NCBI GenBank assembly: GCA_040954595.2
Contig: CM082596.2
Coordinates: forward strand, 4,023,025-4,087,024
From: Balanoglossus misakiensis
Lineage: Eukaryota; Animalia; Hemichordata
Direction: 5' to 3'
Length of the DNA stretch: 64,000 nucleotides
Each line of letters starts with the position of its first letter. The stretch's first letter is position 1. The position numbers were made by a program, and so were the translations under genes. Below the pieces are notes generated by a model, which saw only the letters and a program-made list of their open reading frames with translations, had not been told where the DNA came from and searched no databases. Below are positions 28,367-64,000 of the stretch, one piece after another.

Positions 28367-28401
<35 letters not shown>

Positions 28402-28617
28402 ATGATTAAACAGGCCACTTACCGACGCGTCTTGGCCAGCATAGTGACTTATCACTTTGCTGCCGCCGGGATGTTTGCGGCTCCATCGCGTTATGTCGAA
28501 GACTTCATCGTTGATCACTACCCATTTGTCTTCTCGTTGCGTGTGTTTTTTCACCTCATCCCACGTGAAGATCTTGTCAGCACCGTTTGCTGCGACCTTG
28601 TCGCCACCTTTTCCCAT
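23896..28617 (-). CDS. FADS2: Front-end fatty acid desaturase (delta-6/delta-5, FADS2-like), 444 aa, 11 exons
   Basis: Exons 28617-28423, 27095-26943, 26806-26660, 26488-26387, 26212-26153, 26016-25890, 25137-25055, 24851-24754, 24513-24337, 24215-24090, 23962-23896 (1335 nt). Cytochrome b5 HPGG motif and histidine boxes HDFGH, HYQHH, QIEHH. Orthology to FADS1 versus FADS2 cannot be resolved by eye. Confidence 0.93.
28371..28400. repeat. (TG)n microsatellite in desaturase intron 1
   Basis: 15 TG units directly visible. Confidence 0.95.
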
Positions 28618-28813
28618 AGTGGAATATCTGAAACGAGTTTCTCGTGTTACAACTTACGTTCCAAGTACTTGGAAACTGGATCTGTTGTAATGGGACACGT
28701 GTTGAATCAGGGAAAAGTGTTCGATCAAGATTGACGTGGGGAAGGCGCGATGAGGCCAAGACGTTTGAACGGTACTGCCGGCCGGTTGGACGGGATATTC
28801 CGTACTGTACCGG

Positions 28814-32562: not shown

Positions 32563-33720
32563 GGCAACTGACTGACTGCAGTCTAGTTCTTCAGTGAGTT
32601 GCTACCTTTCCGAACATGACATGTTCTGTGGGTTAAATAAACAAAACAAAATTATAAAATCGCTGTAGTATTCAAAATTCAATGAAAACGGGAATATTTT
32701 GAATGTCATTATGTTGGTTAATTAAACCAAGCCACATCTGCAATCTTCATTGCCTGGTTCTTGTAAGACAATGAATGTTTTCTATCAAGATGCTCATAAA
32801 GTTTATCTCTAATAAACATCCTGGGGAAAGTGATCACCTTCGATCGTTGCTGCGGTTTCGTTGGGCTTCCCTCCCCGTCCAAAAATCGTCAAGGGGAGCT
32901 ACGAAACTGCAGCAACTTCGATCGGCAGTGGTTACGTCCATGATAAATGCAATCGCACAGTGTTGGTCGTTTCATTCTATTTTTAGATGAAAAAGCCAGT
33001 TTTTTCTTTCCTTTGTTAGAGCAATGCAGTCGAACTATACGGTCATGTTATATTCCCATTTTGTCAAACTCTGCTGCTGTACAAGGGAAAAGATATATAT
33101 CGACAAACAGTATCAGGCAAGAGCTCTAAATGTTAAAGTGAATGGACGGACAAACATGATGTACAGACATACCTCGCGTGTGTACATTCGAGCAGGTTGG
33201 CCATCAAGTTCACCTAAAACGACGGGTGGCAATAAATGATGAAGCTGTCTTACCAGACTTGCCACTCAAACTTTATGATAATCTTGCGAAGTCGTATTTT
33301 GAGCGAGCGATAGGCTGATATTGATGCTACTACACCAGGGTACGATGAACTGCTGAAGAACAAAAGCCGTTGGTGCAGAGGAACGAATTTACAAACAAGC
33401 AAACAAGCAGCCAAACCTTTCAAACAGCGCCCGCTAGCGCTATGAAGGCAATGTTTCGGATGTCGACTGGGCGTGATTGTATTATGATACATTTAATTGT
33501 TTGATACAGATTTTGCCCACACCGATTTCCGACACCATTTGTCTATCTGCCATCAGTAGGCATAAGCCTACATGTAAATATGAAGTACCACTGAAAACTT
33601 TATTGAAAAGTTTAATCACGACGACTTCCATCATGTACCTATGTACAGTACTGGTAGGCCTACTTAATTGACTTTATTGGCCAAATTTCGATTTGTCTGT
33701 TGTATGAACAACGAGAGTTG

Positions 33721-34246: not shown

Positions 34247-37200
34247 TTAGCCCCTTGCCCTTTTAGCTGCTCTCTCATTGACATTTGTACTGTCGACCGT
34301 AGTCATGATACCATCGCGTTTCGCCCCAGAAGTGTTGATGAGGTGCTTCAGCTTTGAAATACGACAACTTTCAGTCTTGGGAATCTTTTTCAAGTCAACT
34401 TGCTCTGTCGTATTGATGCAGTCATCTGGGAAAAGTTTTCCTGACGCCGAACCGTAAAGCCAACGTTGTATGTCCTTCATCGTCATGACTTCAATTCTGT
34501 TTGCACCATCTGGAATCGTTTCGGCATTGTTTCCCCGAAATGCCAGATACTTCCCGTTTGTTGGATCACACATTGCAGTCCAGAAATATTCCGGATTTTC
34601 GAGGCTGAAATGAAGAAGTTGAAATGAAATATTTTGCTTAATCCATTTATCTGCAGAATCATGTTCCCGTTTACATTTCGTTCCACGACAAAATGGGATA
34701 ACCTACTGAATAATTTGAGGGGTGCTCACTTTGTTCCCTTAACCTTGCGTGACGGTGAGTAGGGTGTGACACCGGTCAGGATGTAAACTGGTCCGTCGGT
34801 AGGCTGTCTCATGTACCAAACATAGTTAGCGAGGAGACATTCAATCTCTCTCCATGGCCCACTGTTGAAACTCCCCAGTTGTGGGGCGGCATTGACCAAT
34901 AGGAAAGTGGCTCTCATCTTGTCCAGATCATGCTTGTTGATGTAGGATGGGTTTAAATGCCCCTTGTGCCATTTTCCCGTACCCTTGTTGGCATTATCAT
35001 ATTCAACACTAGCAGTCTGTTGTTCTGAAAATAAATTCGATTTGAAACCTTCATACATTCTGAGGAGTCGGAACATTCAGAAAGAACGCGACTTTGCCAT
35101 AAAAGGACCGAAGCACCTCGTACATAAGGATGAGCATTTGACAATGATTATATGAATTTCCAATGAATTGCTTCTACGGCATCACATAATTGTTAAAAGG
35201 TAAAACCTACTCATGCAGTCCTCTTCTGTCAAGTTTACCCCACAGTCCTCTTCTTTGTTAGTAAGCGTCTTAACACGTTCACTGCCTTGGATTAGTTTCA
35301 CTGGACCAAGATCCCGGCACTCATTCGTTGTCTCATACAAAGGCTTGTCATTTGCCACGCAAAGACCTGGAAAACAGTGGAAAACCTGGTCTCTTGCAAA
35401 TGTGGATCCCTTTGCCAACTGCATGGCCTATGATACACTGATATAGGATAAGCCGTTTAAAAATTAGTGTGAAACAGCTGTTAAACCATTTAGCATCCCT
35501 GAAATAACAGTAAATGGAGCTGCCTCTAGAGTTGTGTGTTTGGTTACAAACTGTGTACATGTGCGTAACAAACCTGGGCCCAAAGTCAAAAATGTCTGGA
35601 CACAACATAAATGAAATATGATAAGGCTCTTAAAGTTGCGCTTTCATGTGCAACGTTACTGGAACATAATCGTTGCCATGTCAATTTACGTTATCCTACC
35701 TATTTCAAACCGTTTCCACAGCGTAGCTTCATTGCTCACGTCGCCGCCTTTACCGCGTTTATATCCCGTGCTTGTCGACGACGGAGTAGTCGCAGTATAT
35801 GCGGAATATTCTGCCATCCTGCAATGTGAAATTTCCGACAGCAAGAGTTCATTACACAAATATATTTGCTTTGGGTGTCGGCGGTTTCAGGGATGAACAC
35901 AACAACTGAAATGGCGGAATACTTCCAAGGCTCTGTTCCCCGGTACCTGTGCATAGGGCTTTGATTGGCTTACCTGAGCTCGGTGTTGTACAGAGTAGCA
36001 AAGCAATATTCAGGAGGGCTGCCCAGTCTACAGGGATGACAGATTTTGACCCTTTTGCCAACGTTTGTTGTCGATGGTGGCCATTTACCATCCGCAAAGA
36101 ATTGTTCGCAGCCAGTGGGATCTTTTGATTCCTCGAACACGGCCCTACGTCGACGCTTGTTTGTTTTCTCCTCTAAAACAGTGATGCACACAAACACACA
36201 CAACAAACAACAACAAAACAGGTAAGACCTGAGTCGCGAAGCACCAGATCACTCGTCGCTTATGTTCTACCAACACGAGCGCATTTTGCAATGGTGAAGC
36301 GACAAGGTCTGGGAATCGAGACTGGATCTATACATTTCTTTGAATCTGACTTTACTTCTTCGCATTTGTGAAGGGATGCTGTTTAAAAGAACTTGTGCAA
36401 CCATAGACCCTTTTTTTGTGAGAACTTTTAACGACATTATCATTGTAATTTTTATCATTTTCATAAATCCAATTCATTTCAATATCTACGCTGCGTTTTT
36501 TATCTGTCGGGTATAAGAAACATGCAGGAAAACTTGGTCATTTTTTTGTCGTGGTTCACTTGGGCAAGTCTGAATACGGAGTGCTCATCAGGAGAGAGAA
36601 AGATAAACTCGCTAAAACCGTGTCTTTCCGTCCGCATGACCAACCAAGGAGCGAAAAAGTCGTTATTTGGGCCGTAATAAAACGTTTTTGTCGTCGAGGA
36701 GTGAATAAAGAACGGTCAGATCGTTGCGGTGCAAACTCTTATTTGCACCGCAGCGGTGCGAACTCTTATTTGCACCGCTGCGGTGCAAATAAGAATTTGC
36801 ACCGCTGCGGTGCAAATAAGATCATGGTAGTTATGCTGCAATATAGTGCGGTAAATTTTCGACTTTTGCCTGTACAAATCCTGGTGGCGAAGGGTTCAGG
36901 AAGGCTAGGTTTTTACCTGAAGGAGTCAACTGATGTTGGTTCGAGACCATTTTTTTCCATTTCTTTTTTTTGTGAGAACTTTTAACGACATTATCATTGT
37001 AATTTTTATCATTTTCATAAATCCAATTCATTTCAATATCTACGCTGCGTTTTTTATCTGTCGGGTATAAGAAACATGCAGGAAAACTTGGTCATTTTTT
37101 TTGTCGCGGTTCACTTGGGCAAGTCTGAATACGGAGTGCTCATCAGGAGAGAGAAAGATAAACTCGCTAAAATCGTGTCTTTCCGTACTCATGACCAACC

Positions 37201-43200: not shown

Positions 43201-46200
43201 GGGCAAGTCTGAATACGGAGTGCTCATCAGGAGAGAGAAAGATAAACTCGCTAAAATCGTGTCTTTCCGTACTCATGACCAACCAAGGAGCGAAAAAGTC
43301 GTTATTTGGGCCGTAATAAAACGTTTTTGTCGTCGAGGAGTGAATAAAGAACGGTCAGATCGTTGCGGTGCAAACTCTTATTTGCACCGCAGCGGTGCGA
43401 ACTCTTATTTGCACCGCTGCGGTGCAAATAAGAATTGGCACCGCTGCGGTGCAAATAAGATCATGGTAGTTATGCTGCAATATAGTGCGGTAAATTTTCG
43501 ACTTTTGCCTGTACAAATCCTGGTGGCGAATGGTTCAGGAAGGCTAGGTTTTTACCTGAAGGAGTCAACTGATGTTGGTTCGAGACCATTTTTTTTCCAT
43601 TTCTTTTTTTTGTGAGAACTTTTAACGACATTATCATTGTAATTTTTATCATTTTCATAAATCCAATTCATTTCAATATCTACTCTGCGTTTTTTATCTG
43701 TCGGGTATAAGAAACATGCAGGAAAACTTGGTCATTTTTTTTGTCGCGGTTCACTTGGGCAAGTCTGAATACGGAGTGCTCATCAGGAGAGAGAAAGATA
43801 AACTCGCTAAAATCGTGTCTTTCCGTACTCATGACCAACCAAGGAGCGAAAAAGTCGTTATTTGGGCCGTAATAAAACGTTTTTGTCGTCGAGGAGTGAA
43901 TAAAGAACGGTCAGATCGTTGCGGTGCAAACTCTTATTTGCACCGCAGCGGTGCGAACTCTTATTTGCACCGCTGCGGTGCAAATAAGAATTGGCACCGC
44001 TGCGGTGCAAATAAGATCATGGTAGTTATGCTGCAATATAGTGCGGTAAATTTTCGACTTTTGCCTGTACAAATCCTGGTGGCGAATGGTTCAGGAAGGC
44101 TAGGTTTTTACCTGAAGGAGTCAACTGATGTTGGTTCGAGACCATTTTTTTTCCATTTCTTTTTTTTGTGAGAACTTTTAACGACATTATCATTGTAATT
44201 TTTATCATTTTCATAAATCCAATTCATTTCAATATCTACTCTGCGTTTTTTATCTGTCGGGTATAAGAAACATGCAGGAAAACTTGGTCATTTTTTTTGT
44301 CGCGGTTCACTTGGGCAAGTCTGAATACGGGAGTGCTCAGCAGAGAGAAAGATAAACTCGCTAAAACCGTGTCTTTCCGACCGCATGACCAACCAAGGAG
44401 CGAAAAAGTCGTTATTTAGGCCGTAATAAAACGTTTTTGTCGCCGAGGAGTGAATAAAGAACGGTCAGATCCGCTACCAGTACATGTATACACATTTGTC
44501 CTCTTGGCGAAAAGGTTGAAGGGCCCAATGTTGGAGAGGCCTCGTCAGCCCGTGCAATTTCTGCCGCCAAAATACCCAGGTCAGTAAAAATTAGTGCTCG
44601 TACTTTCTGATGAAGATTCCGTGTTCGGTTCTTGATATTCGTTCCAAAAAAGTGTATTGATGATGTTGCTCTGGCAGAAACGATAGCTTATATTATCTTT
44701 CTTTTCTTCATCAAGGTCATCAAAATCTGTGACAAAGATTGAAAAATTTCACAGAAAAGGGTCATTAATCGTTCAATGTCGCAATCATCGCTACATAATA
44801 CATGACTTGTTGATGTACAGAAAACTAAGTATAAGCTTATTTGGGGAAACAATATGGAGAAGGTCAAGAAATTGTACTCGGTACACAAAAACAAAAACTA
44901 CTGAAAAAAAGGCCAAAGATACAGATATTGGCCATTCAAACAAAATAAACTGAAACTAGAATGACAGATAGTGTTCATACTTACAAAACAATCGAGAAAT
45001 TGGTTCCAGCGCAATGTCATCTTCGTTCAAGGAGTCGGAACATTTGTTTGGTGGAGACACTTCAATAACCAAACATTTCAAATTCTGGAAATCGTCTGGC
45101 TGACATTTTACACCACGGGCCGTTTGTTTGAGAGTTTCAATGGTCCTGTGTTGGGAGTATCTAGTTCCTGTATGTTGATGACATTATATGAACCTAAGAC
45201 AAACTTACAGCTATAACTACCACACAGGGGATGGCAATTTCAAAGTGCAACGTATGAGGGACTCAAACCTTCTGACTGGCACATACGCAAATGCATGCAA
45301 CGACATCAACATTTCATCTGCTGTTTACTGCACTGGTCTGATTCTCTGTTGGGCCGAAAACAGTGCCACCATTGGATTGTTAATCGAAAACGGGCACCCT
45401 GCGAGACTTCAAAGTATGAAAATGTCAAATATGAATATTTCTACGTTCGTTTACGTGTAGTTTCGTTGTGCCACATTCTTTGAAAATTCCAGGATCAAAA
45501 TGGATCACGGGTATGGATATCGTACAGCAAATTATGTATCCTTATTACGTTAAACTCGATGACGTACCTGGCACTTCGCACGCCTGCAGCTTGTACGTGT
45601 TGTCCTCTTGTCGACTGTAGATGTTATATTTACACTCTGCCAGAGGACACCAATCGATGCACATGGAAATTTCAGCATCACCATAATGGCCCCTACCGTT
45701 AGACATGTAATCTTTTCTTTTCGTAACACTCTGGACAATGAATGATTCTGGACGACCAAAGCCGGGCCTGGCTCTCTTCCCGCCAGCTCTACCGGCGTCA
45801 TCTGTCTTCACGTTGAACCTATACTGTCTCTCTCCCCTGACGTTTCTGAAATGAAACGGGTGGCATAAACTGTAGTAGAAAGAGTGTGCATTGGGTTTCA
45901 CAGCTAACATTCCTTCCACGCGAAGAAACCACACGTTCTCTTCCTCAGTGAACGATTCTTAGTGGACAAGTCGACACACACGAACAAAAATTGGCTTATT
46001 GAAGTGAGCCGAACATACCCGTGAATCCATAACTTTCCGATCAATATAGCAATATAATTTCCGCCGCCATCCGCACCATCGTCAAGCTCCATGTTGTAAA
46101 AATTAAACGGAGTCTCGCCTATGTCTTCGAACACCCGGATGTCATGCTGTTTCATGACCTCGTATGGTCCTACTGACAGGCCGTTGGCGGTAAACGTGAA

Positions 46201-48785
46201 GTCCCTTCTAATCTCTTCTCCTTCTTTCAGTTCTTTGCGTTCCGGGTAGACAAACGCGGTCACCACTACGCCAGCATTTCCCCGCGGTACTCTCCAGAAC
46301 AGCCATGCGTAGTTGTCACGGAGCTCGTCGCAATGAAACGCATAACAGCTCAAGTCGGGCGTTGGGTTCCCTGAGACTGTCGATAAAAAAACATCTTACA
46401 ATATCTTGAAAGTGTATAGGATGTAGAAGTACAGCAATTTTATGGGTCATCTGCCGCGATTGGCGTGATAATAACGTTGAAGTAGTCTCTAAAACACACC
46501 TGTTGTTCTCCAGGCGCTCTCGCCAATACTTCCATCGGTTGAAACTTCATCACGATCCCGTCGCCATGGCAATACTTTACTAACCACATCATGTCGGTCA
46601 GGGACACCTACAATCAAATGACGGTCTTTTAGCAAGGTGGTCTGGTCACCATCATCTCATGGTACAGAAACAATGACCACAGAAAACGTCCACACGCGGA
46701 ATATAAGAAACCAAAACCACAACGCTCATCATGCAAATTCGGCATTCCGCCAATTATGTAGGTGAAAGGCCGCTAAATTGTATTTTGTCAGGAATGATCG
46801 AATATTCGTACTTCCACATGGAACATGTGGATTAGCTTGCTGACTGTGCGCGTCTTTGACCAAATAACATTGGAGTTCTCTCAAATTTCTAATTTACCCG
46901 ATAAACTAATCGACTCGAGTATGTTAACTTGTGCTTGGCATTCCAAACTGTGAGTAATCGTTTCTTATTAGAAAAAAGGTGATATTAAACAATACCTAAT
47001 CGCCGATTCTGAAGCATTTCCTTTGCCTTCTTGTCTTTATGTGTCTGTTTGAAACCTGCCTTCTTTGCCGTGCTCTTCCCAGCAGATCGTTTTGCCCTCT
47101 GGTGTACTTTCTGCATGATTTCTTCCTCGGTCGAGTCGAAACAGTTTGCCTCCATGAAAAGGTTTGCCGAGACGAGGGACTTCCACACGGCACCACTTCT
47201 GAAACACAACATCCCGCCACTTATCCCGCCGTACATTTCGGTCCCCGAGGTGTTCCCGTAGTCATACAGGAGTTTCTGCAAGATGTAATCTTCATTTTCT
47301 TCGAACGCGGGCAGACCTCCATCCGCGGTTGACCTCAGTATTCTGTCTCTTTCGTTTATGTAATTAGGTGGGAAGACTATTCCTTCAGTGGCGTCATCTG
47401 TGCGGTTTGTCATAGTGTTGCCAAGGTCACCAACGCAAACCATGTCTTCATCGGCCAAATTCCCAACAACAGCGAAAATGTTTAGAAAATTTCGCAATGG
47501 AGGCAGTAGGGACAGCTTCAAACGTGGGCCTGACTTGCCATCAATGCTCAGGCATATGTCCCCGACCGTCGCTTTGTTCCTGCTGAGGAGGGTAAAGTTG
47601 GTGGCGCCACCATTGGATACCTATAATGGAAATACAGTTTAGTGATAATGCATTTTAACCTGTGATGTCAATTATCAGCTATAATGTGCACGTCACCCAC
47701 TGAAAACCTTCATTTTACTCACCTCGTTAGTCTTGAGACAGTTGTCGTAAGTTTGGTCTCCTGGCAGTGACTGCAGACACCGTTTGTAGTTTTCAAAGAC
47801 ATTCGTCAAATAAATCTGGCCGTCTGTGTCGTTACTTCGCTGCAAGAAGTCTGAGGAATCCGCATGTGTCTTTCCGCCGAGGTTTTCCAGAAACGTAAAC
47901 GGGTTTAGCTGAGCCAAAAACTGAGATATTGTACCCCAGTCTGATTCCGAGCGGATGGTGACGCAGAGGTACGTCAGGGGCTGATCACCAGGGCTGTTGA
48001 ACCATCCCCACGTCTCGGGGTCATCCAGCTTTTGGCCATTTGCACTCGGTGGAAAGAAGGGGTCACTGTGGACGAGCCAGAACCCAGTTTCACTCTCTGG
48101 ATCAAATGCCACGAACCCGCTGGACACTGCACTGTGATCACGGATCGGGAAAGTGTCGATCAGTCGATTGAGCTCATTGGTGTAACCGAAATAGAAGAGA
48201 GAGTTGGCGGTCTGTAGCTTTGCCGCGAAGGCAGAAAATGTGGTTGTCAGTGGCGATTCTCCAATATCAGGTCTTCCAAAAATTTTCGGCTGCTCATTTT
48301 GCTGCTTCTGTTGGCCGGGTGCATCGTAGTAATCGAAGTCGGCGAAGTCTGCTGGCTTATACATCAGCCACCAATCAACCGTCGCTGAGCGCCCACCACG
48401 TGGTTTGCATCCAATCTCTTGTGATGCTGCGCGATTTAGAGGATTGTCTGAAAGGTACCATACGTATTTCACTCAAAATGGCATACATCACATTGTTTAA
48501 TGTTTTAATAGGTCTGATATGCGAACATATGTGCCGTTCTTGCAAGATGAATGTTTCAAATACGAACCCGAAATGTGAAAGCACTCCTTTTGACACTTCG
48601 ATGTAACTCTGTGTATGTTCCTAAAGAACAAGACAATTTATGTGGAAGGTCCGGGCTGCAACAAACTTACCTTCATAAGATGGTGTTTGTGAATCGCGGC
48701 CGCCATCTTCCGATATTTTCGCAGTTTCGCCCGACTTGAAAAGAAGCGGGTACACGAAACACATTGAAAGAATCAGCCTTATCAT
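34247..48785 (-). CDS. Secreted multidomain nuclease precursor, paralog B (about 1213 aa): signal peptide + DNase II-like domain + unknown domain + DNA/RNA non-specific endonuclease
   Basis: Exons 48785-48671 (MIRLILSMCFVYPLLFKSGETA), 48447-47723, 47620-46996, 46607-46500, 46376-46019, 45845-45568, 45167-44985, 44726-44604, 36172-35974, 35818-35700, 35366-35211, 35024-34730, 34604-34247 sum to 3642 nt in frame. Motifs VDWWLMYKP, FWLVHSDPFFPP, CVGDL (DNase II); RAKR and KRRRR; FATLY, HKGHLNP, NAAPQLGSFNSGPWREIE (His-Me nuclease). Confidence 0.8.
36411..44471. repeat. Tandem array of about 14.5 units of about 555 bp inside intron 8 of paralog B
   Basis: The unit landmark ATGCAG recurs at about 36522, 37076, 37632, 38187, 38742, 39298, 39855, 40383, 40938, 41494, 42049, 42605, 43160, 43716 and 44272. 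Units are near-identical and each full unit has 27-bp subrepeats containing GCACCGC(A/T)GCGGTGC. Confidence 0.97.
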
Positions 48786-51289
48786 GATGTCATCTGCAGA
48801 TTAACATAAAAAGATTCACCAAAGATAGTTGAGGGGCGGGAGGAACGGGGAAGGGGTGCTTGTATGATTTTAAGTGATGCAAGTCACAGTCACATCACTG
48901 TACCAAGAATTCAAAAGATCTGTTTTCATTTTACAAAACACAGTTACACAGGATACAACGTCCTCTTGTGGATATTTGACCTCGGTGAGATCCGAGATTC
49001 TAAAGCTGATCCCAAGGATGATGAAATTCCGTGTTTACTCAGTTTCAGTACATGTATTACTTCAGTTGGACAGCTCACAAACAGACAATGTTTATCATCC
49101 CAAAGACGTTGCTAGACCTTTGAAAGCTGAAAGTGCCGTTTGTTTACGCGGAGAAAATCGTGGTCAGAGGTTATACCTCCATGTAGTTTATCTTTGTCTT
49201 CCCGTTTTCTTCGTGGTGTCAGTAGATGTACTCCAGTGATTCACCGAATCAGAGTGTTTAGACATGGTGCCGTTGTTTACATGATACGACCACCAGCTCT
49301 ATTTGGTACAGCGTTTCGGGCTTTTGCTCTTCCTTGCTTTGTTTTCAACACTCTGTCGATCACCACGATCAAGTCTGTTTGGGAAACAATTCACGAACTC
49401 GGTGACGACAGACTTGGTAGCCTGAATAACTTGTCCCTCCCTCACGCGGACAATTATCATAAAATTAAATAGCTCACCTGTTAGATGGTGTGTCCAGGTG
49501 TTAGATGTTCGAATCAAAAGGATGAATCACACATCTGGCACTCGCATTGTCCAAATTTAGCCCAGTCTAACGGATGATGTGTGGTACTGGTGTATACCGG
49601 ACCCTCTCCTCTCCCGGAACTGGTCAGATATGGTAGGAATGGAGTCTTTCTTTCGTCAAGAGGTGGGTGTTTATGTATACTTAACATACTTGGAAATAGC
49701 TAGGTCTCGCCGATCATGGAAAACAGAGCTAAATCAGCTGAGAGAGTCAGTCAAGAGGGGTATATATCATGGCTGCGCGTAAACAAAATGTCAGGCAGCT
49801 GGACTGAGTCTGATCCTCAACAGACCTGTCCCAGTAATGCATCTACTCCCCGCGAGTCAATTGCTTCACAATTCCAATTTCTCTACTGACTGCATGCGCC
49901 ACGCACGGGATCTGGACAGGACGTGCTACTGTGTTCAACAAACTTTAATGAAAAGTGGAAGTTCAATAGCCCTTGGTTCATCGACAGCGCGGAAGAAGTG
50001 ATGAGAAACATCTAGGTTTCAATCATGTGAGACGATTGTCGTGTCATTCACGTAGTAAAACAACAGAATGTCAAGGCATAATGTACCGTTGATTTCTCCT
50101 TACTTTCCCATCCACGGTCACATGTGAGGTTTTTAAACTTACACTGGCCAGGATTTCTCTCCACAACTAGTCGTGAGGTCGTAGAAGTTAGTAACAAAAT
50201 GACGTTCAGCGCATTTTGCTGAAATCTCATATACACTATGTACACAGTTCTGGCAGTTATGGGGTCGTTGTATATACGCAGTGAACTGCACCAGGATTAT
50301 TTTGATCGGCCTGTCGCTGCTCAGATGGCCTTTTCAGATGATCAAATGTATAAAACAACACAATGTAAACACACAGACTGGGGACAGTGAACTCGGTAAA
50401 CTCGAGAAGCTTAAAACTGTGCCAAACGATGCCCCCGGACCAATGCCACACGTGTCCAAAGTCTTGATTGGTTAAAGATTGCGATGACGTCATCACAAGT
50501 CAACTTTTTACTGCTCTATATAGTTGATGGCTGAATTATGGTTAACGCAGACTGTCTGGGAGATAACCGTTGTTTGCTTTACATGGTGTCATAGTATAAA
50601 CACATGAAACCACACGCGGTGTCTGCAGCCGGCAAGTGAACCCAATAAAAAGAGAAACTGTAATGATTTGTCGTGTTTAAAGACCCATACTCGTTGATGT
50701 GAACAATTCTATAGATATAAACATTTCCCCCTTCTTTGCACTCAGTTTTGGGTATAAACCACAAACACATTGGAAAGTTATCGCATTTTCTTTCATTACA
50801 AAATCGGTTAACATTATTGGCTCTGCATTGGTTATAATTTCATGAATTACAAATTAATGAATGTGTAAAAATATGCTTTTTATAATTGACCGCGCACTAT
50901 TGCTATGTCTGTTCTTGGGCGGACTTCATGAAATTCTCAAATACCAGAAATGTTGCTCTTCTGTAAAATTGTGTCGTATATGCAGTTAATATTTAATAAT
51001 AACAATGACTAAGAATATAAACTGAAAGTCCTAAAAACCGTTAGATAAAAAGGCAAGGTTAAAAAGACGTGTTTTCAGCATAAAAGACGAATGTTGAGCA
51101 TTCGATAAAAATTGATCAGAAACACTTACAGTCTAGTCCCCATCGCCATCTTGTTTTAGTCCTACGGGCCTATACCTAGTAGATGTCAGTGTTCTGTTGT
51201 ACAATGTACATATTATCTTTTCGTTTGAAATTTGACCAACTAAGAAAGAAACTTCGTGATTCATGCATGATGGGGTAAGATCCGGTACT

Positions 51290-51550
51290 TTACTTGCTGC
51301 CTGTCTTTTTGGTGCCTCTTGTTGCTGTTGCCCTCGTTGTCGGTCTTGCTGTTGCCCGCGTTGTCGGTCTTGTTGTTGCCCCGCCGCGCGCTGCCGTTTT
51401 TGCTGCAGCCTTTGCTGCAGCCTTTGCCGCCGGTTTTGCTGCAGCCTTTGCCGCCGGCTTCTTGGGCGCTGCTTTCTTGGCCTTCTTCTTCGGCGCCGCC
51501 TTTTTCTTGGCCTTCGTCGTCTTACCGGTTGCTTTGGCTGGTGCTGCGCC
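51290..51550 (-). other. Histone-H1-like Lys/Ala/Pro-rich and Thr/Arg-repeat C-terminal tail of paralog A
   Basis: AAPAKATGKTTKAKKKAAPKKKAKKAAPKKPAAKAAAKPAAKAAAKAAAKTAARGGATTRPTTRATARPTTRATATRGTKKTGSK lies in frame after the nuclease domain. Confidence 0.8.
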
Positions 51551-54500
51551 GACGAAGTGTCTGACCTCCTTGAGTCTGCAACTGGAGGTGTTGGGAATCG
51601 TTGTCAAATCGACGGGCGTTGCGTTAGTCTTACAGTCATCCTCTTTATCAGGAAAGAGCGAGTCAGCCCCTTTGTAAAGCCACTGCTCCATTTCGACCAT
51701 CGTCTTGATCTCTATTCGCTCTTCTCCAGCCGCGAGGACTTCTTTGTTCGTCCCCCGAAATGCCAGATACTTTTTTTTGTCGGGATCACACATCACGGTC
51801 CAGAAGAATTCGGGATATTCGAGGCTGGAACGAATCAGAATACAGACAACGCTTTTTAATTCAACGAAAGCGAGAGATTTTTCTTCGGATCATCAGTAGG
51901 ATCAAAAGGTCATGTTTGAAAATAATGCCAGAAATGTTGGACCTGTGAACCATGACAAAATTATTACATGCAGTGTACATGCTTACGTTGAACCTGGGAC
52001 TTTCTTTGATGTCGAGTACGGGATAACGCCGGTCAGGATATACACGGGTCCGTCGGTGGGCTTCCTCAGGTACCAAACATAATGAGCAAGGAGACACTCC
52101 ATCTCTCTCCATGACTTTCTGTTGAAGACCCCGAGTTGCGCGGCGGCGTTAATCAGCAGAAAAGTGGCCCTCATTTTGTCGATATCGAAGCTGTTGATAT
52201 AGGCTGGATTTAAGTGCCCCCTGTCCCATTTTCGCGGATTACCTTCGTTGGCCTTATCGTAATCACCGTTGGCTGTCTGGCGCTCTGCAAAAGAACATTA
52301 AATATAAATTCGTGACGTCAACTTTCATAAAATTAAACCCTCATACTTTTTCTTCTCAATTTTACAAGCACGGTCTTCTCCATCGGCACGCCGGAGTGCC
52401 CGCACACGACTGAATCTTTCAGTCCAGGTCTTTTCTTAAGAAAATAAAACATTTATTCACTTTAGGACAACATTTACAACCCCCTCGGCTCTATCCTCAA
52501 TCTCCTGTCTGATTGCTCTGAAATTAGCTTCACATTTTGCTTTGGGGATGACGTTTACAAACTGTGACGTCATTGTGATTTGGCAAACGTTTTGTTTGGG
52601 CCTAAAGATCTATTTGTTTATCTGCCTTTAACGTGGTGAACAAGTTCAGAAATCATATATTTCTAGTGTTATGTACCTACCTTTACATTCCAGTTTGTCA
52701 GCACAATCAACCTTCTTGCCGTTGAGTGGCGTCACTTCCTTGCTTCCTTTAGAATGAGATACAGGACCAAGATCTTTGCACGCGTTAGTCGTATCGTACA
52801 GGGCCTCCTTTTTAGATGTCTGACACAAACCTGCAAAGCATTCATTACCAAGGATATTGGAAGGCGTTCAAAATCAACATTGCAGAAGGTAAACATGCAA
52901 TCGCAATGACAACAATTGTTCAGTCCCCTTGTCGGAATTCTTTACAAGATGGAAGATATAAATGTAAAGGTATGATCTACAAAGTTTTCTTTTCTTTTCG
53001 CACAACCTGGTTTTGCCACGTGACCTCGCTGATCAGAACTACCTTACCGGCTTCATAGCGACCCCACAGTTTCCTGTCATCGCCAACGGCTTTGCGGGCA
53101 AGGCGCTTAGCCCCAACCGGGGGAGTTACCGCCGTATACGCACAGTATTCTGCCACCCTGCAATGGAGATTCTAATATCAAATTGTTGTTTACTCAATTG
53201 CTTCTTGGATGCAAATGTTAGTTTGATTTCCAATGCCACAAACAACAAGGTATAAAGTCGTGACACAACAAAGCTATGCATGATGGTCATACATTCAAAA
53301 CTTCGGAAAAAAATTGGTCTGAGAAAATGAACGTGAAATGCGTAAGGCTAACCAGGAAAGGCGTCTCTATCTCGTACGTATTCGATAAGCGTTTCCGATT
53401 ATAAAATCGTTTGCACCAAAGTCCGTCAAGAAAGAGGCACTGCTGCAGAATCCTCAAGTTCCCTTCTCCCTCTCTTCTCCCCTCCCCTCCCCTTCCCTAT
53501 ACCCGCCCTCATGTCTTACTTTAGGTCTGTGTTGAACAAAGTGGCGAAGCAGTATTGATTTTTCGCGCAGTCGTGACAGATTTGCACCCTTTTGCCAGCT
53601 ATGGTAGATTCTGGCCATTTTCCCCCTGCAAAGTAGTCGTTGCAATGCGGGTCGGTTCCTTCGTCGCGAACTTCTCTGCGTTTCCTATTTGCCGCTTCTT
53701 CCTCTTAAATGATAAACACACAATGATTAGAAGGTCATCATTAATGCTCATCAAATGCGCCAAGCAGTAAATAATGTGAACAGGTGATTTATATAATGGA
53801 AGCGAAAAATAACAGTGCCCACAGAAGCTGTGATACATAGTATTCTGCTGCGCTCGAGAAAGTAGTGCCGCAGAACACGCCGCATCACCGGATGTACGGC
53901 ATAGATCGTGCGCAGAGTCAAAGAGTTCTCTCAGATTTACCTTCCGACGGGTAGATAACATCCGGCGCTATATAGTCACCGTAAAACAGAAGATTGATTA
54001 TATTGCTCTGGCAAAAACGATACTTAACAAAGGCCAAGTCTTCCTTTTCGAAATCCTCAAAATCTGTGGAAAAAATACAGGAACGTTGTAGTGGCAGTTA
54101 CATATAAGGCCTATGCAGTAACATAACATAAATTTGAAACTTCCACAATGGGTGACAGTGTCTGATAGTAGGAGTTATACAATTCAATACAGTTTGATTG
54201 TTTGGGATTTTGGCAGTTATGGAAATTGTGGTATTCTTCGAAGAGCCCTCTTAGATAACAGTAGTAATTGGCAGCTACTGTTGGCGCACACGCACTGTCC
54301 ACAGCTTGTAATAGTCAAGTATATGTGGTCAGAGCTCCAGTAATTCCATTTTTTGTCATAGTGGGACTGTAATACGTGTACATGTACACACATATTTGCA
54401 AAAGCAAGCTAACAGATCGACAGTTGTGATAGCTTACCGAAAATAAGAGAATATGGTTCGAGAGCGACGTCATCTTTGTCCCACGTGGTTTTGCAAGTCG

Positions 54501-57500
54501 AAGCATCATCAGAATCTTCTTCGTAAATCAAACAACTCCTCTCCTGGAATTCCTCGGGTGTGCATTTCATGGACTTGGCCTTATCTCTTAGTGTGTGGAT
54601 CGTACGACCCTGGGAGAAACCGATTCCTGTGAGTTGTCACGAAAGAGGGCCAATCAGGACAAAGAATCAGACGAGGAATATTAGTACATGTAATGGATAT
54701 GTGTAAAGGGGACAGGTTTGAATGGCTTCCTCTAATAGAGGTCCCAAATTTACGCTTTGCAAAACAAGAGAAAAGAACTTTACGAAAACAACCAAAAGAC
54801 TCAAAAACCAAACCAACATCTCGATGTGCGAATCACAGATTTGTACGTCATCAATTGCATATAAATAATGCTAATTAATATATCTGAAGTAAGAGCGATG
54901 TGGTATTATTTGGCCATACCTGGTATAGTACAAGGTGGGGCGCCTGCGAGATTGTATTTGACGTCACTTCCGCTGTCGTCTCTTTTGTAGATCCTGTACT
55001 TACACTCTGCCAGTGGACACCAGTCAACGCACATGGTGATTTCTTCGTAAATTTCTTCCCGCTGTTGCTTCTCCCATTCCTTCCTCTGCCTTCTTGTCAT
55101 GACGCTTGTCACTTGGAACACATTGTCAATGTCTGTATCCAGTCCGGCATCAGCCGGCCGCATGTTAAATCTGTACTGGATTTCTCCTCGTATGCTGTGG
55201 AATGAAAAATAGTTCTACCTTTGTAGTTGTCATATTAAAGTCAATCATTTTTTTCCACTTTTTTTATGTTCCAAACAATCAGAATGACCGAATATCACGT
55301 TAGCTTATGAACTCCTATTTCTTAAACATAGCAAAAATCAGCCATCTTGAAATAGTGTCGACCATGTGAGATTTTTATCACTCACCTAGGTAGCAAACCC
55401 TATTGAAGGTAGGGAGAAATCCCGGGACTTTCTAGGGCAGCACAAATCTCAAAGAGCTCATATCGTACCTCTAATTAATCACAGAAGCATTGAATGACTT
55501 ACCTGTACTTATTCAACTTGCCGATTCGAATAGCTCTGTAACTATTCTTGGTGTCAAACATTTCTTCATCCTCATCGTCACCACCGTTGTCCTTATTCTC
55601 CTCCTTCAAAAGTGCCGAAATCTCGGCGAAGGGGATCTTCTCGGTATCTGTGATCACCTGAATTGCGTGGTCATTTTGTACGGAATCCGGCTGCACCTTC
55701 ATATCGCTGACTGTAAACGAGTACATCAAAGAAAGCTCGTGACTGTTTTGTATTTCTTGCCTCCACGGAAAGCCGAAGACGCTCACTTCGATGTCGACAG
55801 AACCTATCAGTGGTTGCCACAGCAACCAGGCGTAGTTGTCTTTGTATTCGTCGCAATGGAATGCAAAACACTTCACGTCTGCAGTGGCGTCTGTTTCTAT
55901 ATCCATAGCTTCCTCATGTCTCGCAGCCAAAGCTTGCTCCAATCCGAAAAGTGGGGTCTCAAACCCAGAAGTACTTGCTTTGGCTGTGGACAAAACAGAA
56001 CACAATTACTAACGATTATTACAATGATGGGGATCTCAGTCAGTTTGTCTGTTATTCATCATCAGTCAGTTTGGTTACATACATGTGCATCCTTTTAGAA
56101 TAGATGGCCCTAAACTCTTTGCAAAATCAAAATCTGTCAGTCTACATTACGGCCGCACTTACGAGAAGGAGGTGATTCAATAACGACTATCTTTTGGATT
56201 TCATCACCAGGTTCAGTATCACTGTCTGCGTCACTGTCGTATCCACTGCTCATCTTCATTCTCGATCGTTTGCCTATTCCCCGTTTCACCCGACTGTTGT
56301 AGACCTTCTCCGTGACTTCGTCCTGCGTGGTGTCGAAGCAGTTGGCTTCCATGTAAAGGTCGGCCGAAATGAGGGTCTTCCACAAGGCGCCACTTCTGAA
56401 GCACACAATCCCACCGCTTATCCCGCCGTACATATCAAGTTCTGGGGCGTTCCCCGAGGAGAGAAATTTCTGCAACATGTAATCCGCGCTGCCTTCGGGT
56501 GTTATACGGTACAGCTTCGAGGCTGGTCCAGTAGCCAGAACGTCGTCTCTGGTGTCGATGTAACTGGACGGGTAGAGAACTCCTCGGTTGGCATCGTCGG
56601 TGCGATTTATCATCGTGTTTGACAGATCGCCGACACAAACCAAATCTTCATCAGTCACAGTTCCGACGACAGCAAAAATGTTGAGGAAATTTCTGACAGG
56701 GGGTAGCAGGGACTTCTGCAAACGGGGACCTGTGTCATGAATATCGAGGCATACATCCCCGACCATCGCTTTGTTCCTGCTGAGGAGGTTGAATGTGCTG
56801 GAACCGCCGATTGACAACTATTTGCAAATATAAGATAGAGAACAGGAGACATTAGCTTTGAAAAAAACTGCTGTTCTTTAGATACTTGGAGGAGAGACAA
56901 AACGTTGAAGCAACCAGTCTGTCTGTATGTCTGCATTATCAATTTGAGTTTTTGTTTCAAGTGAAATAATTGCATTACTGTCATTTGAAGCATAACAACT
57001 TATCTCATATTTTACTTACCTCACTAGACCTCAGACAATTTTCGTATGTTTGATCTCCCGGAAGTGACTGGAGACATCGTTTGTAATTATCAAAGACGGT
57101 TGTCAAGTAAATTTGCCCATGTGTGTCGTTACTTCGCTTCAAAAAATCCGAGAAACCCTCCAAAGTTTCACCGCCGATGTGTTGAAGGAAGGTAAACGGG
57201 TTGAGCTGGCCCAAAAACTGAGATATTGTACCCCAGTCTGATTCCGAGTGGAGGGTGACGCAGAGGTACGTCAGAGGCTGATCACCAGGGCTGTTGAACC
57301 ATCCCCACGTCTCGGGGTCATCCAGCTTTTGGCCATTTGCACTCGGTGGAAAGAAGGGGTCACTGTGGACGAGCCAGAAACCGTTGCCGCTCTCAGGATC
57401 AAATGCCACGAATCCGTTAGAGACTGGGATGTGACCACGAATCGGAAAAGTGTCGATTAACCGGTTGAGTTCGTTGCTGTAGCCAAAATACGATACTGAG

Positions 57501-58525
57501 TTGACTCCGTCGAGCTTTGACGTCAGGGCGGAAAAGGTAGTTGTCAGTGGGGATCTGTCCCTGTCAGGCCTTCCGAGCGAGTCGTCCTGGCGGGATTCCG
57601 AGTCGAAGTAACGGAATTCAGTGAAGTCGGCTGGCTTGTACATCAGCCACCAGTCGACGGACACCGATTGGTCACCAAGGGCTTTACATCCTATCGCTGG
57701 AAAGGACAAAATATAATTCATGTGAGACGGAATATTAAAGTCATAAACTTTTCCTCAGATTTTGTTCAAGGAATCTTTGGAATATTCTCTCTCAACATTG
57801 GGAATAAAAAAATGGGCTCACCTTGCAAAATTTTGAACGACAGAGCAAAATTGTCTTAAATTTGGAATTCAAAATTGCTGCCAATCCCAAACTTTAACTT
57901 GATGGGGTAAAGTAAAAGAAGTGTTTTTAACGCACCCCGGCATATGTAGTGAATTTCCAGGTACTTGACAGCTCCGTAGCAGGGATCACCGAAAAGACTG
58001 TTCGAGGCTTGAATACTGCACGTCTCTTGATCGTCACACAGAGCGGACACAATGATGAGACTGAGCGGCGCTTTGCAGTCATTGACGGAGGATTCCGGGC
58101 CGCAGATGCCGTTCTCTGTTCGGCCGTAGTTTGCCGACAGAACCTTGATCTTGCCACCGGGGCATGTCAGCGTCACAGTTTCGTGTTCGCATTCACGAGC
58201 AAGCAACCCTAAAATGAAAGGAATGAGTCATATATATACCATGGAATATTGAAATCTGACCAATCCCGTTTTCAGTGTGTGGCCACGCAAAAAGTGCGAC
58301 ACACCCTAATGACCACACATGGAGAGGTGATTTTATTACTGTAACACGTTCTCCCCTATTTCCCTATACTGGGGTCCGACTTCACCGTGGAAAACACTAC
58401 GTTTGGACCAAACCATGCTGGTGAAAGGGTTAAATGAATACTTTGACAAATTACTAACCTTCAGCAGATCCCGCTGACCAGAGAACAGAGAGCAAGAACA
58501 GGCACAGCGAAAGAGACAGCTTCAT
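51290..58525 (-). CDS. Secreted multidomain nuclease precursor, paralog A (about 1338 aa): signal peptide + SUEL lectin + DNase II-like domain + unknown domain + DNA/RNA non-specific endonuclease + Lys/Ala-rich tail
   Basis: Exons 58525-58459 (MKLSLSLCLFLLSVLWSAGSAE), 58208-57936, 57696-57020, 56817-56163, 55983-55503, 55194-54920, 54626-54438, 54063-53941, 53703-53520, 53157-53048, 52830-52681, 52284-51987, 51824-51290 sum to 4017 nt in frame. Most exons match paralog B exon by exon (e.g. 123-nt YRFCQSNIIN exon in both). Nuclease motif WDRGHLNP...NAAAQLGVFNRKSWREME. Confidence 0.82.
57936..58208 (-). other. SUEL / rhamnose-galactose-binding lectin domain exon of paralog A
   Basis: CEHETVTLTCPGGKIKVLSANYGR...C...C...CSIQASNSLFGDPCYGAVKYLEIHYIC carries the canonical ANYGR and FGDPC..KYL motifs with 8 Cys. 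Confidence 0.92.
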
Positions 58526-60999: not shown

Positions 61000-63900
61000 A
61001 TGGATGATCGTTCGTCAACGACATCAGCTGGAAGAAGCGATCTAAACAAGGTGGGTGAATTGCCCTTCGTTTTGACACGTCCATGGTTGGATTTAGTACG
61101 TGCGATGTGCGGAGCTACCTTCACCTCACGCTAATAAATATCTTCCATAAGATGCTGCAAGCTTCCTGTATTTTACTAAAATTGCTATTTCCCAAAGCTG
61201 TAATTGACTGAAATTCCGTTTTCAAAGCTGCAAATTGCATTTTCCCGATTTTATTTTAACGCATAAGGATTCAAGACTTTTTATTTTTATCATGACCCAT
61301 TTCAACGGGCACTCTCACTTTCACGTCTGTGGGGTTAGCGTGTACAGCATGCGATGATCATGTGCTCACCACAGCCCCGGCTATTCATTGAACTGTAAAG
61401 ACTTACGTCACCTATACAGTCACGCTCAGGCTGCCGTGATATCCCACCACATGTATATTCAATGCTTTGAGGCTGTATGCATTAAAAACAGTGGAACATT
61501 GTCAGTCACGCACAGGCTCAACACACAACATAAAACTATTTTAAGCATGTTGATTAACAATGCCAGGAATATCACACCACTTGTTGTGGATGACTGAAAT
61601 GGTTTATCGACCGATGTCGTCTGCTGTACGCTTTATAGCAGATGACACAGAGACAGTTTGCACACGTAGACAAAGCGTTGGGGTTGAACCAGTAAGCCAA
61701 TATATTTGCTTACCAAAATACGCAAGAACCACCAAGGTCTTCAATAATTTTACAATTTTAGTTGGACTTAAAGCTACATACTACTTTCAATTTCCCCCAG
61801 ACGTTTGACAATACCAGCGTACAAACGGATGCAAGCTTCAGCATTGACGTCGGCACGGATTTCGAGCAGGACACCGCACTGGACAATGCAGGGTACACGA
61901 ACGGTGTAAACGGAACGCCGGCGGGGACCAAACCAGGTCTCGATTCGTCGAATATCTACACCCCAACCCAGAATGGAAATGGACATGCCGGCCCAGTTAG
62001 GGATGCCAACGTGAATGTTGAGGAGACTGAGAAGAAGGAAGAAGAAGTAGATCCCTGGGCGCTCCCGGAGTTGAAGGAAACGGAGACTCCATGGTCAGGT
62101 AAAATGTATACTGATTCTTCGGGGGAGAGGTGACTGTTATTACCCAGTGTGTCAACTGATGAGGTCAAATATGGGATAATAGTTATGCAAGCGTCATCTG
62201 TATACACATGTGTACTTACGGTCACACATATGGTACATATAAATATATCACAGATGTAATATTTTAATCTTCTATTAACAAATAATATAGTGACATCATG
62301 AGTATGTACGGTGTGTATAATTAATTTTGGCTAATCTTCTCTTTTCTTTCCCTTCTGATTCATAGAACTTGACACGAATGGCAAATGTAAGCGAGTCCTC
62401 TTGAATGGAATCGTCAGACCCGTTTTGCTTCTGGGACTGCTGTACCTTTTCATCTGTTCCCTGGATTTCCTCAGTTCGGCTTTTCGTCTCCTCGGAGGCA
62501 AGACTGCGGGAGAAGTCATCGGAAGCAGTATCGTAGCAACGAATCCAGTCTGTGGGGTCATGGTCGGTATCCTAGCAACTGTGCTGGTTCAGAGCTCGAG
62601 TACAACGACCTCTATCGTGGTTTCCATGGTAGCATCCGAGAGTAAGTTTTTTTCGTTAAAGGGACAAAGTCTCTCTCTCGCTGCCCTTTTTCCATTAATT
62701 ATGTTTGATACAAGACACTGTTTATGTTATTTTACATGTGGATATATAGTGAATTCCTTGTTCTGTTATTTTATCGTAGTCTTGGAGGTTGGACCGGCCA
62801 TCCCTATGATAATGGGCGCCAACATCGGCACATCGGTGACCAACACCATCGTGGCAGTCTTCCATCTTCGGGACAGGGGCGAGTTCCGGCGGGCTTTCGC
62901 GGGCGCCACCGTGCACGACATGTTCAACTGGCTGGCCGTGCTCGTCCTCCTGCCGCTGGAGCTGGTCTCCGGGTGCCTCTACCGACTGACGGACGCCATC
63001 ATCAAGAGCATGCACTTGGAGACCAACGAAGAGGCCGACGTGGAACTTCTGAAGGTCATCACGAAGCCGTTCACTGAACTGGTCATACAGGTACTAAGAC
63101 AAAAGGAAGCAATTCCTCCGTTAGTTTTTGGAATGCAAGATTGCTGTTTGATCTTTTTTCCGGGTCATCCATACTGTAATTACTGTCCATGGTTCCTATT
63201 AGGATTAAGGGGGCATTAAATTAGTTCTTCGGAGTTTATACTGACAAGTGTTTAATTGTACTGTCTGCAGATAGACAAGGGTGTCATCAAAGACATCGCT
63301 CAAGGGGACGAAGGGGCAGAAAGACAGAGTTTGGTCAAAAAGTGGTGTGACGGCAAAGAGATCGATGTCCTGAGAAACGTCACGGACGTGGTCAACGTGA
63401 CAAAAATAGTTGATGGCGAATCTGTGATCGATCAAGAAGAGGTCACCAACCTGGTCATGGAGAAGGGGTACGAGGATGTCAGATGTGAGTGGCCGTTTTT
63501 GTATTCCATATCGTTTGGCAGTCTGCCGACAATAGCATTTAAAGCATCGTCCGCCTGTCCGGGTCGTTGGCTGACCACAGTCTCTTGATGGCGACGATGC
63601 ATATATAGGGAAAACTAATCTGTCTCTTTTTATACAATTTCAGGCAATTTTCTCTTCAGCAATACAGGTCTCAGTGACGCTGCATTAGGCGCCATCGTCC
63701 TCATATTAGCGCTAGTCATTCTCTGTGTCTGTTTGGTGTTGATTGTCAAGATCCTGCACTCGCTACTGAAGGGACAAATCGCGGTCTTGACCAAGAAGGT
63801 GATCAACTCCGACTTCCCGGGGCGGCTGTCGTGGTTGACCGGGTACTTCGCCATCTTGGTCGGCGCCGGCCTCACCATGCTGGTTCAGAGCAGCTCCATC

Positions 63901-64000
63901 TTCACGTCGGCTCTGACGCCCCTGGTCGGCATCGGCGTCATCAAGATCGAGCGGATGTATCCCTTCACCCTGGGGGCGAACGTCGGTACCACGTTCACGG
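61000..64000 (+). CDS. SLC34A2: Type II sodium-dependent phosphate cotransporter (SLC34/NaPi-II), 5' part
   Basis: Exons 61000-61050 (tentative), 61801-62098, 62366-62641, 62780-63090, 63271-63484, 63644 to beyond 64000. Motifs [65 protein letters not shown], and a second [10 protein letters not shown] repeat. Paralog assignment is approximate. Confidence 0.93.

Follow-up and report, generated by a model that had tools for sequence, protein, structure and literature searches.

A conserved hemichordate DNase II-like domain without HxK motifs shares its polypeptide with a His-Me nuclease

The 64,000-nucleotide stretch of Balanoglossus misakiensis DNA analysed here (contig CM082596.2, positions 4,023,025 to 4,087,024; hereafter the window, whose own numbering is used throughout) is animal DNA and carries two neighbouring spliced paralogs on the minus strand: A (58525-51290, 13 exons, 1338 residues), followed by B (48785-34247, 12 exons, 1177 residues). 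Both encode a DNase II-like domain from which the two catalytic histidine-x-lysine (HxK) motifs have been lost. A sequence-only reading of the window had proposed a conserved pseudo-enzyme; our comparisons agree that the domain is such a protein and not an active DNase II, and place it in an apparently undescribed family. They add three points which that reading did not contain: a His-Me nuclease with intact catalytic residues further along the chain, basic sites of the furin type, and a related HxK-less group in bivalves and in a dataset from the unicellular Pigoraptor. We favour, with a probability of about 0.5, an explanation in which the DNase II domain is a non-catalytic binding module that heads a secreted precursor, and in which the His-Me nuclease does the cutting once freed by a furin-type cut.

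Results

Both HxK motifs are lost in the DNase II-like domain

The span originally singled out (56163-57696) corresponds exactly to exons 3 and 4 of A, and every motif quoted for it was located on the minus strand in A or B. In A, VDWW lies at 57658-57647 and the first motif position reads RGHIPVSNG (57439-57413), with V205 in the place of the catalytic His, N207 in that of the Lys, and H202 upstream. The counterpart in B is RDHSAVSSG (48142-48116); neither contains HxK, and the Lys is gone whichever alignment register is chosen. Further along A follow GFWLVHSDPFFPP (57382-57344), the second motif position, CVGDL (56637-56623) and CFRSGALWK (56403-56377). The second position reads RNFLNIFAV in both paralogs (A 56694-56668, B 47494-47468), again without HxK; L384, I386 and F387 of A stand at the His, the Lys and the following Trp. 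The nearest proteins come from the acorn worms Ptychodera flava (P0001 and P0003; P0001 is 64% identical to exon 3 of A) and Glandiceps talaboti (P0002), and all are named 'uncharacterized'. Together with A and B they make up the five hemichordate-type proteins referred to below, in none of which the domain contains H-x-K (0 of 5).

For comparison we aligned 29 canonical DNase II proteins from the profile search described below, chosen for having both motifs and a length of 300-490 residues (P0049 was omitted for its permuted order). The catalytic H, K, H and K columns are complete in 29 of 29 canonical rows; they hold V205/N207/L384/I386 in A, V146/S148/L326/I328 in B, and V, N or S, L or N, and I across the five hemichordate-type rows. 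In A and B, Phe takes the place of the Trp that follows the second motif, and the equivalents of W282, R298, Q302 and R305, pocket residues whose roles we take from PMC5449587 (papers given by PMC number are cited for the accessible part of their text), are changed in the hemichordate-type rows. Scaffold residues are retained, namely C..DW, G..FWL.HS..FP, C.GD and GG..C. The segment between CVGD and GG, 11 residues long in canonical enzymes (22 of the 22 rows among the 29 that match the pattern), comprises 70 residues in A (56416..56625) and 69 in B; the insertion thus measures about 59 residues, close to the 60 estimated at first sight. In A, exon 3 (57020..57696; both flanking introns spliced) encodes the first half of the domain, and exon 4 (56163..56817) the second half, the insertion and the first basic site; in B the domain occupies exons 2-3 (46996..48447). 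Pfam PF03265 matches at 55.3 bits in A (E 7.8e-15) and 52.9 bits in B (E 4.2e-14) against a cut-off of 23, through the first half of the profile only.

Two matters of alignment bear on these assignments. When hhalign is allowed a 3-residue insertion, it pairs the upstream His (H202 in A, H143 in B; present in 4 of the 5 proteins, with Pro at this position in P0003) with the catalytic His. A second alignment displaced the short block around the second motif of the hemichordate rows into a gap; the register of the first alignment is supported by the Phe/Trp register and by strand 276-280 of the structural model. Agreement between A and B is not independent evidence over FWLVHSDPFFPP, because this motif is covered by a 104-nucleotide tract that is identical in the two genes (A 57276-57379, B 47979-48082); the three other homologues retain the motif. 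Third codon positions are 95-100% identical over about 57334-57215 and 35-80% identical in the rest of the domain, which makes a recent gene conversion between A and B at this tract likely.

The chemistry of DNase II, which follows the phospholipase D (PLD) mechanism, requires two His and two Lys (PMC5449587). Since 5 of 5 proteins lack both Lys as well as the second His, the domain is very probably inactive as a DNase II.

The domain is predicted to keep its fold and is the best-conserved part of the protein

An AlphaFold2 model of the P0002 domain, built on a 63-row alignment that included canonical enzymes, reached a predicted local distance difference test score (pLDDT) of 73.6 and a predicted template modelling score (pTM) of 0.81. 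The superposition on Burkholderia DNase II that had been proposed as a check gave a matching fold: B. thailandensis DNase II (5i3e) was the best match (Foldseek E 7.6e-11; VIA Z 22.7, 263 aligned residues, root-mean-square deviation 4.3) and the sole real one, with Tdp1 as the next family at Z 4.8. The part of the model that corresponds to the CVGD-GG insertion has a pLDDT under 50. In the ESM Atlas, the P0001 domain falls with DNase II clusters (29 of 30 matches, score 0.95). The two-lobed DNase II fold is therefore predicted by these models to be retained.

Substitution rates between A and B were estimated by the Nei-Gojobori method, at a divergence near saturation. Nonsynonymous over synonymous rates (dN/dS) were 0.205/0.92 in the HxK-less domain, that is about 0.22 and much the same without the converted tract; the nuclease stands at 0.321/1.32 and the middle region at 0.558/2.07. 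Among the five proteins, the HxK-less domain has 123 invariant columns out of 351, the nuclease 72 out of 275 and the middle region 38 out of 244. Judged by these comparisons, the domain is under purifying selection and is the best-conserved part of the protein, above the nuclease to which it is fused. Its invariant positions include family-specific motifs directly ahead of each dead site, NExNRxxDxFPxR and SLLPP, and also WGW. With the catalytic residues lost throughout, the fold apparently kept and conservation at its highest here, the proposal of a conserved pseudo-enzyme stands.

A His-Me nuclease and basic sites in the same polypeptide

The proteins are laid out as a hydrophobic N-terminus, a SUEL lectin domain (A only), the HxK-less DNase II domain, a linker, an acidic middle region, a second linker, a PF01223 nuclease and a basic tail. 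Exon 1 of A (58459..58525) holds the start and a hydrophobic N-terminus, likely a signal peptide as judged by hydropathy and not by a signal-peptide predictor. Exon 1 of B (48671..48785) also holds the start, with a hydrophobic N-terminus that stays under the hydropathy cut-off used. An N-terminal hydropathy peak is present in 4 of the 5 proteins, and none has a peak past residue 60. Exon 2 of A (57936..58208) encodes the SUEL galactose/rhamnose-binding lectin domain (Pfam PF02140, E 4e-21), which is absent from B and from P0001-P0003. This exon is flanked by phase 1-1 introns and was probably gained by exon shuffling.

Furin-type sites (R-x-K/R-R) lie within the linkers in 10 of 10 cases, although linkers account for 8-13% of the length and shuffling predicts 0.4-0.5 such sites per protein. 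Site 1 is RVKR in A (56281..56292) and RAKR in B (47098-47087) and occurs here in 4 of the 5 proteins; site 2, RKRR in A (53675..53686) and RRRR in B (36155-36144), precedes the nuclease by 10-12 residues in 5 of 5. Between them lies the middle region of 280-300 residues (A exons 5-8, 53941..55983, acidic and with 10 Cys; B exons 4-7, 44604..46376), for which Pfam, NCBIfam and Atlas searches returned zero matches and which thus belongs to no known family.

The C-terminal part is a His-Me DNA/RNA non-specific endonuclease of the EndoG/NucA type, encoded by exons 9-13 of A (51581..53644; Pfam PF01223 E 2.9e-13, with EndoG and NucA matches in the PDB) and, together with RRRR, by exons 8-12 of B (34247..36172; E 2.4e-13). 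We take its N-terminal part to resemble vertebrate ENDOD1-type proteins. The catalytic residues are H1085/N1116/E1124 in A and H983/N1014/E1022 in B, with the Gln in NAA(A/P)Q. In A, DRGH lies at 52225-52214, the Asn at 52123-52121 and the Glu at 52099-52097; B has HKGH (34968-34957) with Asn and Glu intact. GH, Gln, Asn and Glu are found in 5 of 5 proteins and match H155, Q181, N187 and E195 of the dEndoG active site (PMC2790893), and a profile of the C-terminal family matches dEndoG with E 7.4e-9. DRGH is complete in A, P0001 and P0014, a protein described below. The coding sequence of A ends in a Lys/Ala-rich basic tail of net charge +29 and the stop (51290..51580); such a tail is also found in P0001 and is short or absent in B, P0002 and P0003. 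In DNase1L3, a basic C-terminal peptide is used for microparticle DNA (PMC9208542).

Related HxK-less domains occur in bivalves and in a Pigoraptor dataset

Searching 1.84 billion representatives with a profile yielded 69 matches. Ranks 1-3 are the hemichordate proteins, the first motif is absent from every one of ranks 4-10, and H-x-K-G is present in 52 of the remaining 66 matches, first at rank 11. Species names, looked up for 19 of these 66, assign motif-less neighbours to Mytilus, Ostrea, Crassostrea, Pinctada, Tegillarca and a dataset from Pigoraptor chileana. The uncharacterised bivalve proteins without HxK (P0008, P0010, P0011, P0013, P0016 and P0039) come from mussels, oysters, a pearl oyster and an ark clam, and three of them contain R-x-K/R-R sites. 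The domain stands alone in P0016 and P0012 and before a thioredoxin-like stretch in P0008 and P0010 (weak Pfam matches); in P0009, possibly a fused gene model, it is joined to a peptidase S51-like stretch. An oyster protein that consists of the domain alone has the accession XP_078314814.1. Bivalve C-terminal parts gave no match to our profiles of the middle region and the nuclease. The HxK-less domain thus occurs without a His-Me domain, and its job should therefore be independent of the nuclease.

In a quick tree of 41 rows (LG+C20), the hemichordate, bivalve and Pigoraptor proteins split off from the others with a Shimodaira-Hasegawa-like approximate likelihood-ratio (SH-aLRT) support of 99. 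A 46-row tree from which six catalytic columns had been removed recovered the grouping, here of 13 rows (99/97), with four other motif-less proteins, included as controls, all outside it. P0009, fragments and matches without both motifs were omitted from the trees. Derived columns shared by the group include a Trp (12/12), a Tyr (12/12) and a Cys pair (11/12), and 6 of the 7 bivalve and Pigoraptor rows have His at the position of the first Lys (P0010 has Gln). A Pigoraptor profile scored 38-52 with hemichordate rows, 16-31 with bivalve rows, at most 10 with canonical rows and 0.4 with P0053, the one Trichinella protein compared; a bivalve profile scored 52-65 with hemichordate rows, at most 36 with canonical rows and 17.0 with P0053. 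Separate losses of the first motif are seen among canonical DNase II in P0032, P0033 and P0050 (one foraminiferan Bolivina protein and two others), and P0033 has lost both motifs.

The Pigoraptor dataset protein P0014 (1653 residues) combines a DNase II-like start with a PF01223 domain containing DRGH, in a hemichordate-like layout. Aligned globally, its middle region scored 72 against the hemichordate middle region, where shuffles gave 50 +/- 6 and 0 of 300 and 0 of 200 reached the observed value; a local hidden Markov model (HMM) comparison gave -1.0, and hhalign 19.7 versus 20.0 for the best of 60 shuffles. Homology of the two middle regions is likely but short of proven. Pigoraptor cultures are fed the bodonid Parabodo caudatus (PMC7147346), and P0014 may come from this prey; it would belong to a non-animal eukaryote either way. 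Its source may also be gene transfer. No relative emerged when metagenomes were scanned with P0014 and exon 3, and plasmid scans returned chance matches only.

Gene models, splicing and neighbourhood

All introns of A and B are GT-AG and neither gene has an internal stop. In contigs of run X3, 11 of the 12 introns of A are joined, including those between the SUEL exon and exon 3, exons 3 and 4, and exons 4 and 5; the intron between exons 1 and 2 is the sole one without a spliced contig. For B, two coding introns and one 5' untranslated region (UTR) intron (48794-49477) are joined. A contig across the second degenerate motif of A (56542-56817) shows 0 differences. The type of X3 had been guessed as DNA ('DNA?'), and sample S1 is common to X3 and the DNA runs; we read X3 as RNA because its contigs are intron-free with 0-2 differences, which points to an RNA origin.

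Intron 7 of B (36400-44500) is filled by a satellite whose 555/556-bp unit, itself containing 27-bp repeats, is present in about 14-15 tandem copies, and the plus-strand open reading frames of 137-183 residues repeated there are by-products of this satellite. Intron 3 of B contains a possible additional in-frame exon (46494-46607), proposed from the letters of the window, for which no spliced X3 contig was seen. Neighbouring genes are a C2H2 zinc-finger gene, cytochrome b5-domain exons and a Na/Pi cotransporter (30847-32601, 23990-28653 and 61762-64000); the cytochrome b5-domain gene is presumably fatty-acid desaturase-like.

Discussion

We propose that the DNase II-like domain, having lost both HxK motifs, is likely a non-catalytic binding module. 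Its precursor is likely secreted and would be cut at both linkers by furin-type convertases. That it gives rise to three pieces in this way, with catalysis residing in the His-Me domain, is a probable part of the proposal. The nuclease would cut DNA or RNA in a Mg-dependent manner, by analogy with EndoG and NucA. The remodelled pocket and the new invariant motifs at its rim might recognise a partner, be it a protein, a glycan or a lipid surface, and so keep the precursor close to where nuclease action is required, for example at the gut, in mucus or at a microbial surface; in A, the SUEL lectin and the basic tail could assist targeting. A binding role is favoured because the domain exceeds the enzyme in conservation and has gained invariant motifs at its former pocket, because in A it shares its piece with a lectin, and because it exists without the nuclease (bivalves, P0012 and P0016). 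Of binding, chaperoning and delivery, the roles named in the sequence-only reading, binding fits the comparisons best.

Several points weigh against this proposal. Binding and nuclease activity are both predicted from sequence and model, and any ligand is hypothetical. Secretion is suggested by hydropathy, with the N-terminus of B under the cut-off, and the Pigoraptor fusion P0014 is without any R-x-K/R-R site. Instead of DRGH the nuclease has HKGH in B, DKGH in P0002 and HRGH in P0003; EXOG works with Ser in place of the DRGH Asp (PMC2790893). H202 may still reach the pocket; the loop around it (residues 83-87) is modelled with low confidence, at a pLDDT under 50. With a shallow 7-row family alignment AlphaFold2 reached a pLDDT of only 35.5, and the canonical rows in the larger alignment bias the model toward the DNase II fold. 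As to the grouping, the stems are long and long-branch pull may contribute; Trichinella P0053 branches beside the group, and joining it to the hemichordate rows is not rejected by the approximately unbiased (AU) test (p 0.264). In addition, the hemichordate profile scores higher against a deep canonical profile (202) than against the bivalve one (128, both by hhalign).

The charges of the protein would also suit a latency or folding pro-piece. The acidic HxK-less domain would then act jointly with the acidic middle region to fold a basic nuclease or to keep it masked up to the furin-type cut. Net charges are opposite in 5 of 5 proteins (-13 to -20 for the domain, -7 to -34 for the middle region, +1 to +17 for the nuclease), site 2 lies immediately before the nuclease in all five, and P0014 has the same pairing of HxK-less and His-Me domains. 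There is precedent, since EndoGI blocks EndoG and NuiA blocks NucA, and acidic patches of EndoGI seal the EndoG groove (PMC2790893). Acidity is, however, a poor discriminator (-17 to +47 in canonical DNase II, -1 to -10 in bivalve members), a secreted disulfide-dependent nuclease requires no inhibitor, as in the Serratia case (PMC2790893), and the bivalve members, P0012 and P0016 have no His-Me domain to mask. A complex prediction for the domain and nuclease of P0002, with alignments not used, scored 0.00 and counts as evidence neither way. We regard a pro-piece as unlikely. The domain might instead still grip DNA or RNA and feed it to the nuclease with which it shares a chain. DNA binding survives in H295 mutants of human DNase II (PMC5449587), and all five proteins retain the equivalents of K20 and H119 (K134 and H224 of A, on our numbering) and of N297. 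Yet both phosphate-binding Lys and two pocket Arg have been swapped, mostly for hydrophobic residues, K134 is Gln in the bivalve and Pigoraptor members, and the furin-type site would split the domain from the nuclease. The acidity of the domain is a weak argument here, as canonical enzymes overlap in net charge. Taken together, nucleic-acid binding seems improbable to us.

We give no better chances to residual catalysis on another phosphoester, through H202 or through the His at the first-Lys position. Strong conservation, the alignability of H202 to the catalytic His and the recurrence of the other His in bivalve and Pigoraptor rows would fit such an activity. The candidate His nevertheless differs in position between the groups and is replaced in P0003 (Pro) and P0010 (Gln), and the second half-site is hydrophobic, whereas the PLD mechanism requires two His and two Lys (PMC5449587). 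Finally, the satellite in the B intron and the conversion tract mark an unstable locus, as might be expected of a decaying relic or an artefact of annotation (pseudogene, mis-assembly or wrong alignment). This account is largely refuted, and we give it hardly any credence: the 13 and 12 GT-AG exons are free of stops, splicing is seen in X3 at 11 of 12 introns of A and two coding introns of B, dN/dS is about 0.22, and identical losses occur in two other genera.

Returning to the binding module, its presence in acorn worms, Pigoraptor and bivalves permits a broader and rather doubtful conjecture. A secreted modular family of nuclease effectors may have existed before animals, in which a dead DNase II recognition module and the middle domain target a His-Me nuclease, released by convertases, and deliver it to microbes or prey, as in acorn worms and Pigoraptor. 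Catalysis would then have been lost before animals split from their unicellular relatives, with bivalves keeping the module with other or no cargo.

Comparison with known systems

With the DNase II family (PF03265; B. thailandensis 5i3e/5unb; PMC5449587) the domain shares the Pfam match, the predicted two-lobed fold and the scaffold residues. It differs in the loss of both HxK motifs and of the W/R/Q/R pocket residues, in a CVGD-GG distance of 45-70 residues instead of 11, with an extra two-Cys helical segment, and in being part of a protein of 1200-1300 residues. The C-terminal part matches the EndoG/NucA/Serratia family (PF01223; PDB 3ism, 2o3b, 1ql0) and retains its catalytic His, Gln, Asn and Glu; unlike in that family, the nuclease is Cys-rich, has a basic tail and stands behind a dead DNase II domain and a middle region.

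ENPP ectonucleotidases likewise carry one live and one dead phosphoesterase domain per chain, the dead one being of the His-Me family, and PLD5 is an HxK-less protein of the PLD fold. Compared with ENPP, the arrangement here is reversed, with a PLD/DNase II-type domain as the dead partner.

HxK-less DNase II is already known from Trichinella. T. spiralis P43, T314 and DNase II-8 are also of the secreted type and without HKD motifs (PMC4148230, PMC11287892); all three showed no nuclease activity when assayed (PMC11287892), and 124 of 125 predicted DNase II genes are without the motif (PMC4148230). Unlike A and B, these proteins are single-domain, and P0053 retains the first Lys and the Trp, has canonical-like scores (17.0 and 0.4 bits) and stands outside the 13-row group. 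A literature search, with most subscription papers outside its reach and no supplements, found no description of the present clade or layout, both of which appear new.

According to a survey of DNase evolution, invertebrates have a minimal repertoire in which DNase II is represented by a single gene. The survey reports DNase2b beside Uox in Saccoglossus; its accessible part makes no mention of Ptychodera or bivalves (PMC9208542). Beside that single gene, our data indicate a second, catalytically dead DNase II lineage in hemichordates, bivalves and the dataset of a non-animal eukaryote. It may offer a tractable handle on the ligands of dead DNase II proteins, a question shared with the Trichinella proteins, and brings with it a 280-300-residue region without family assignment. 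It is also a clean case in which, of two unrelated nuclease folds joined in a single chain, one retains its catalytic residues and the other appears to have turned into a module without enzymatic function.

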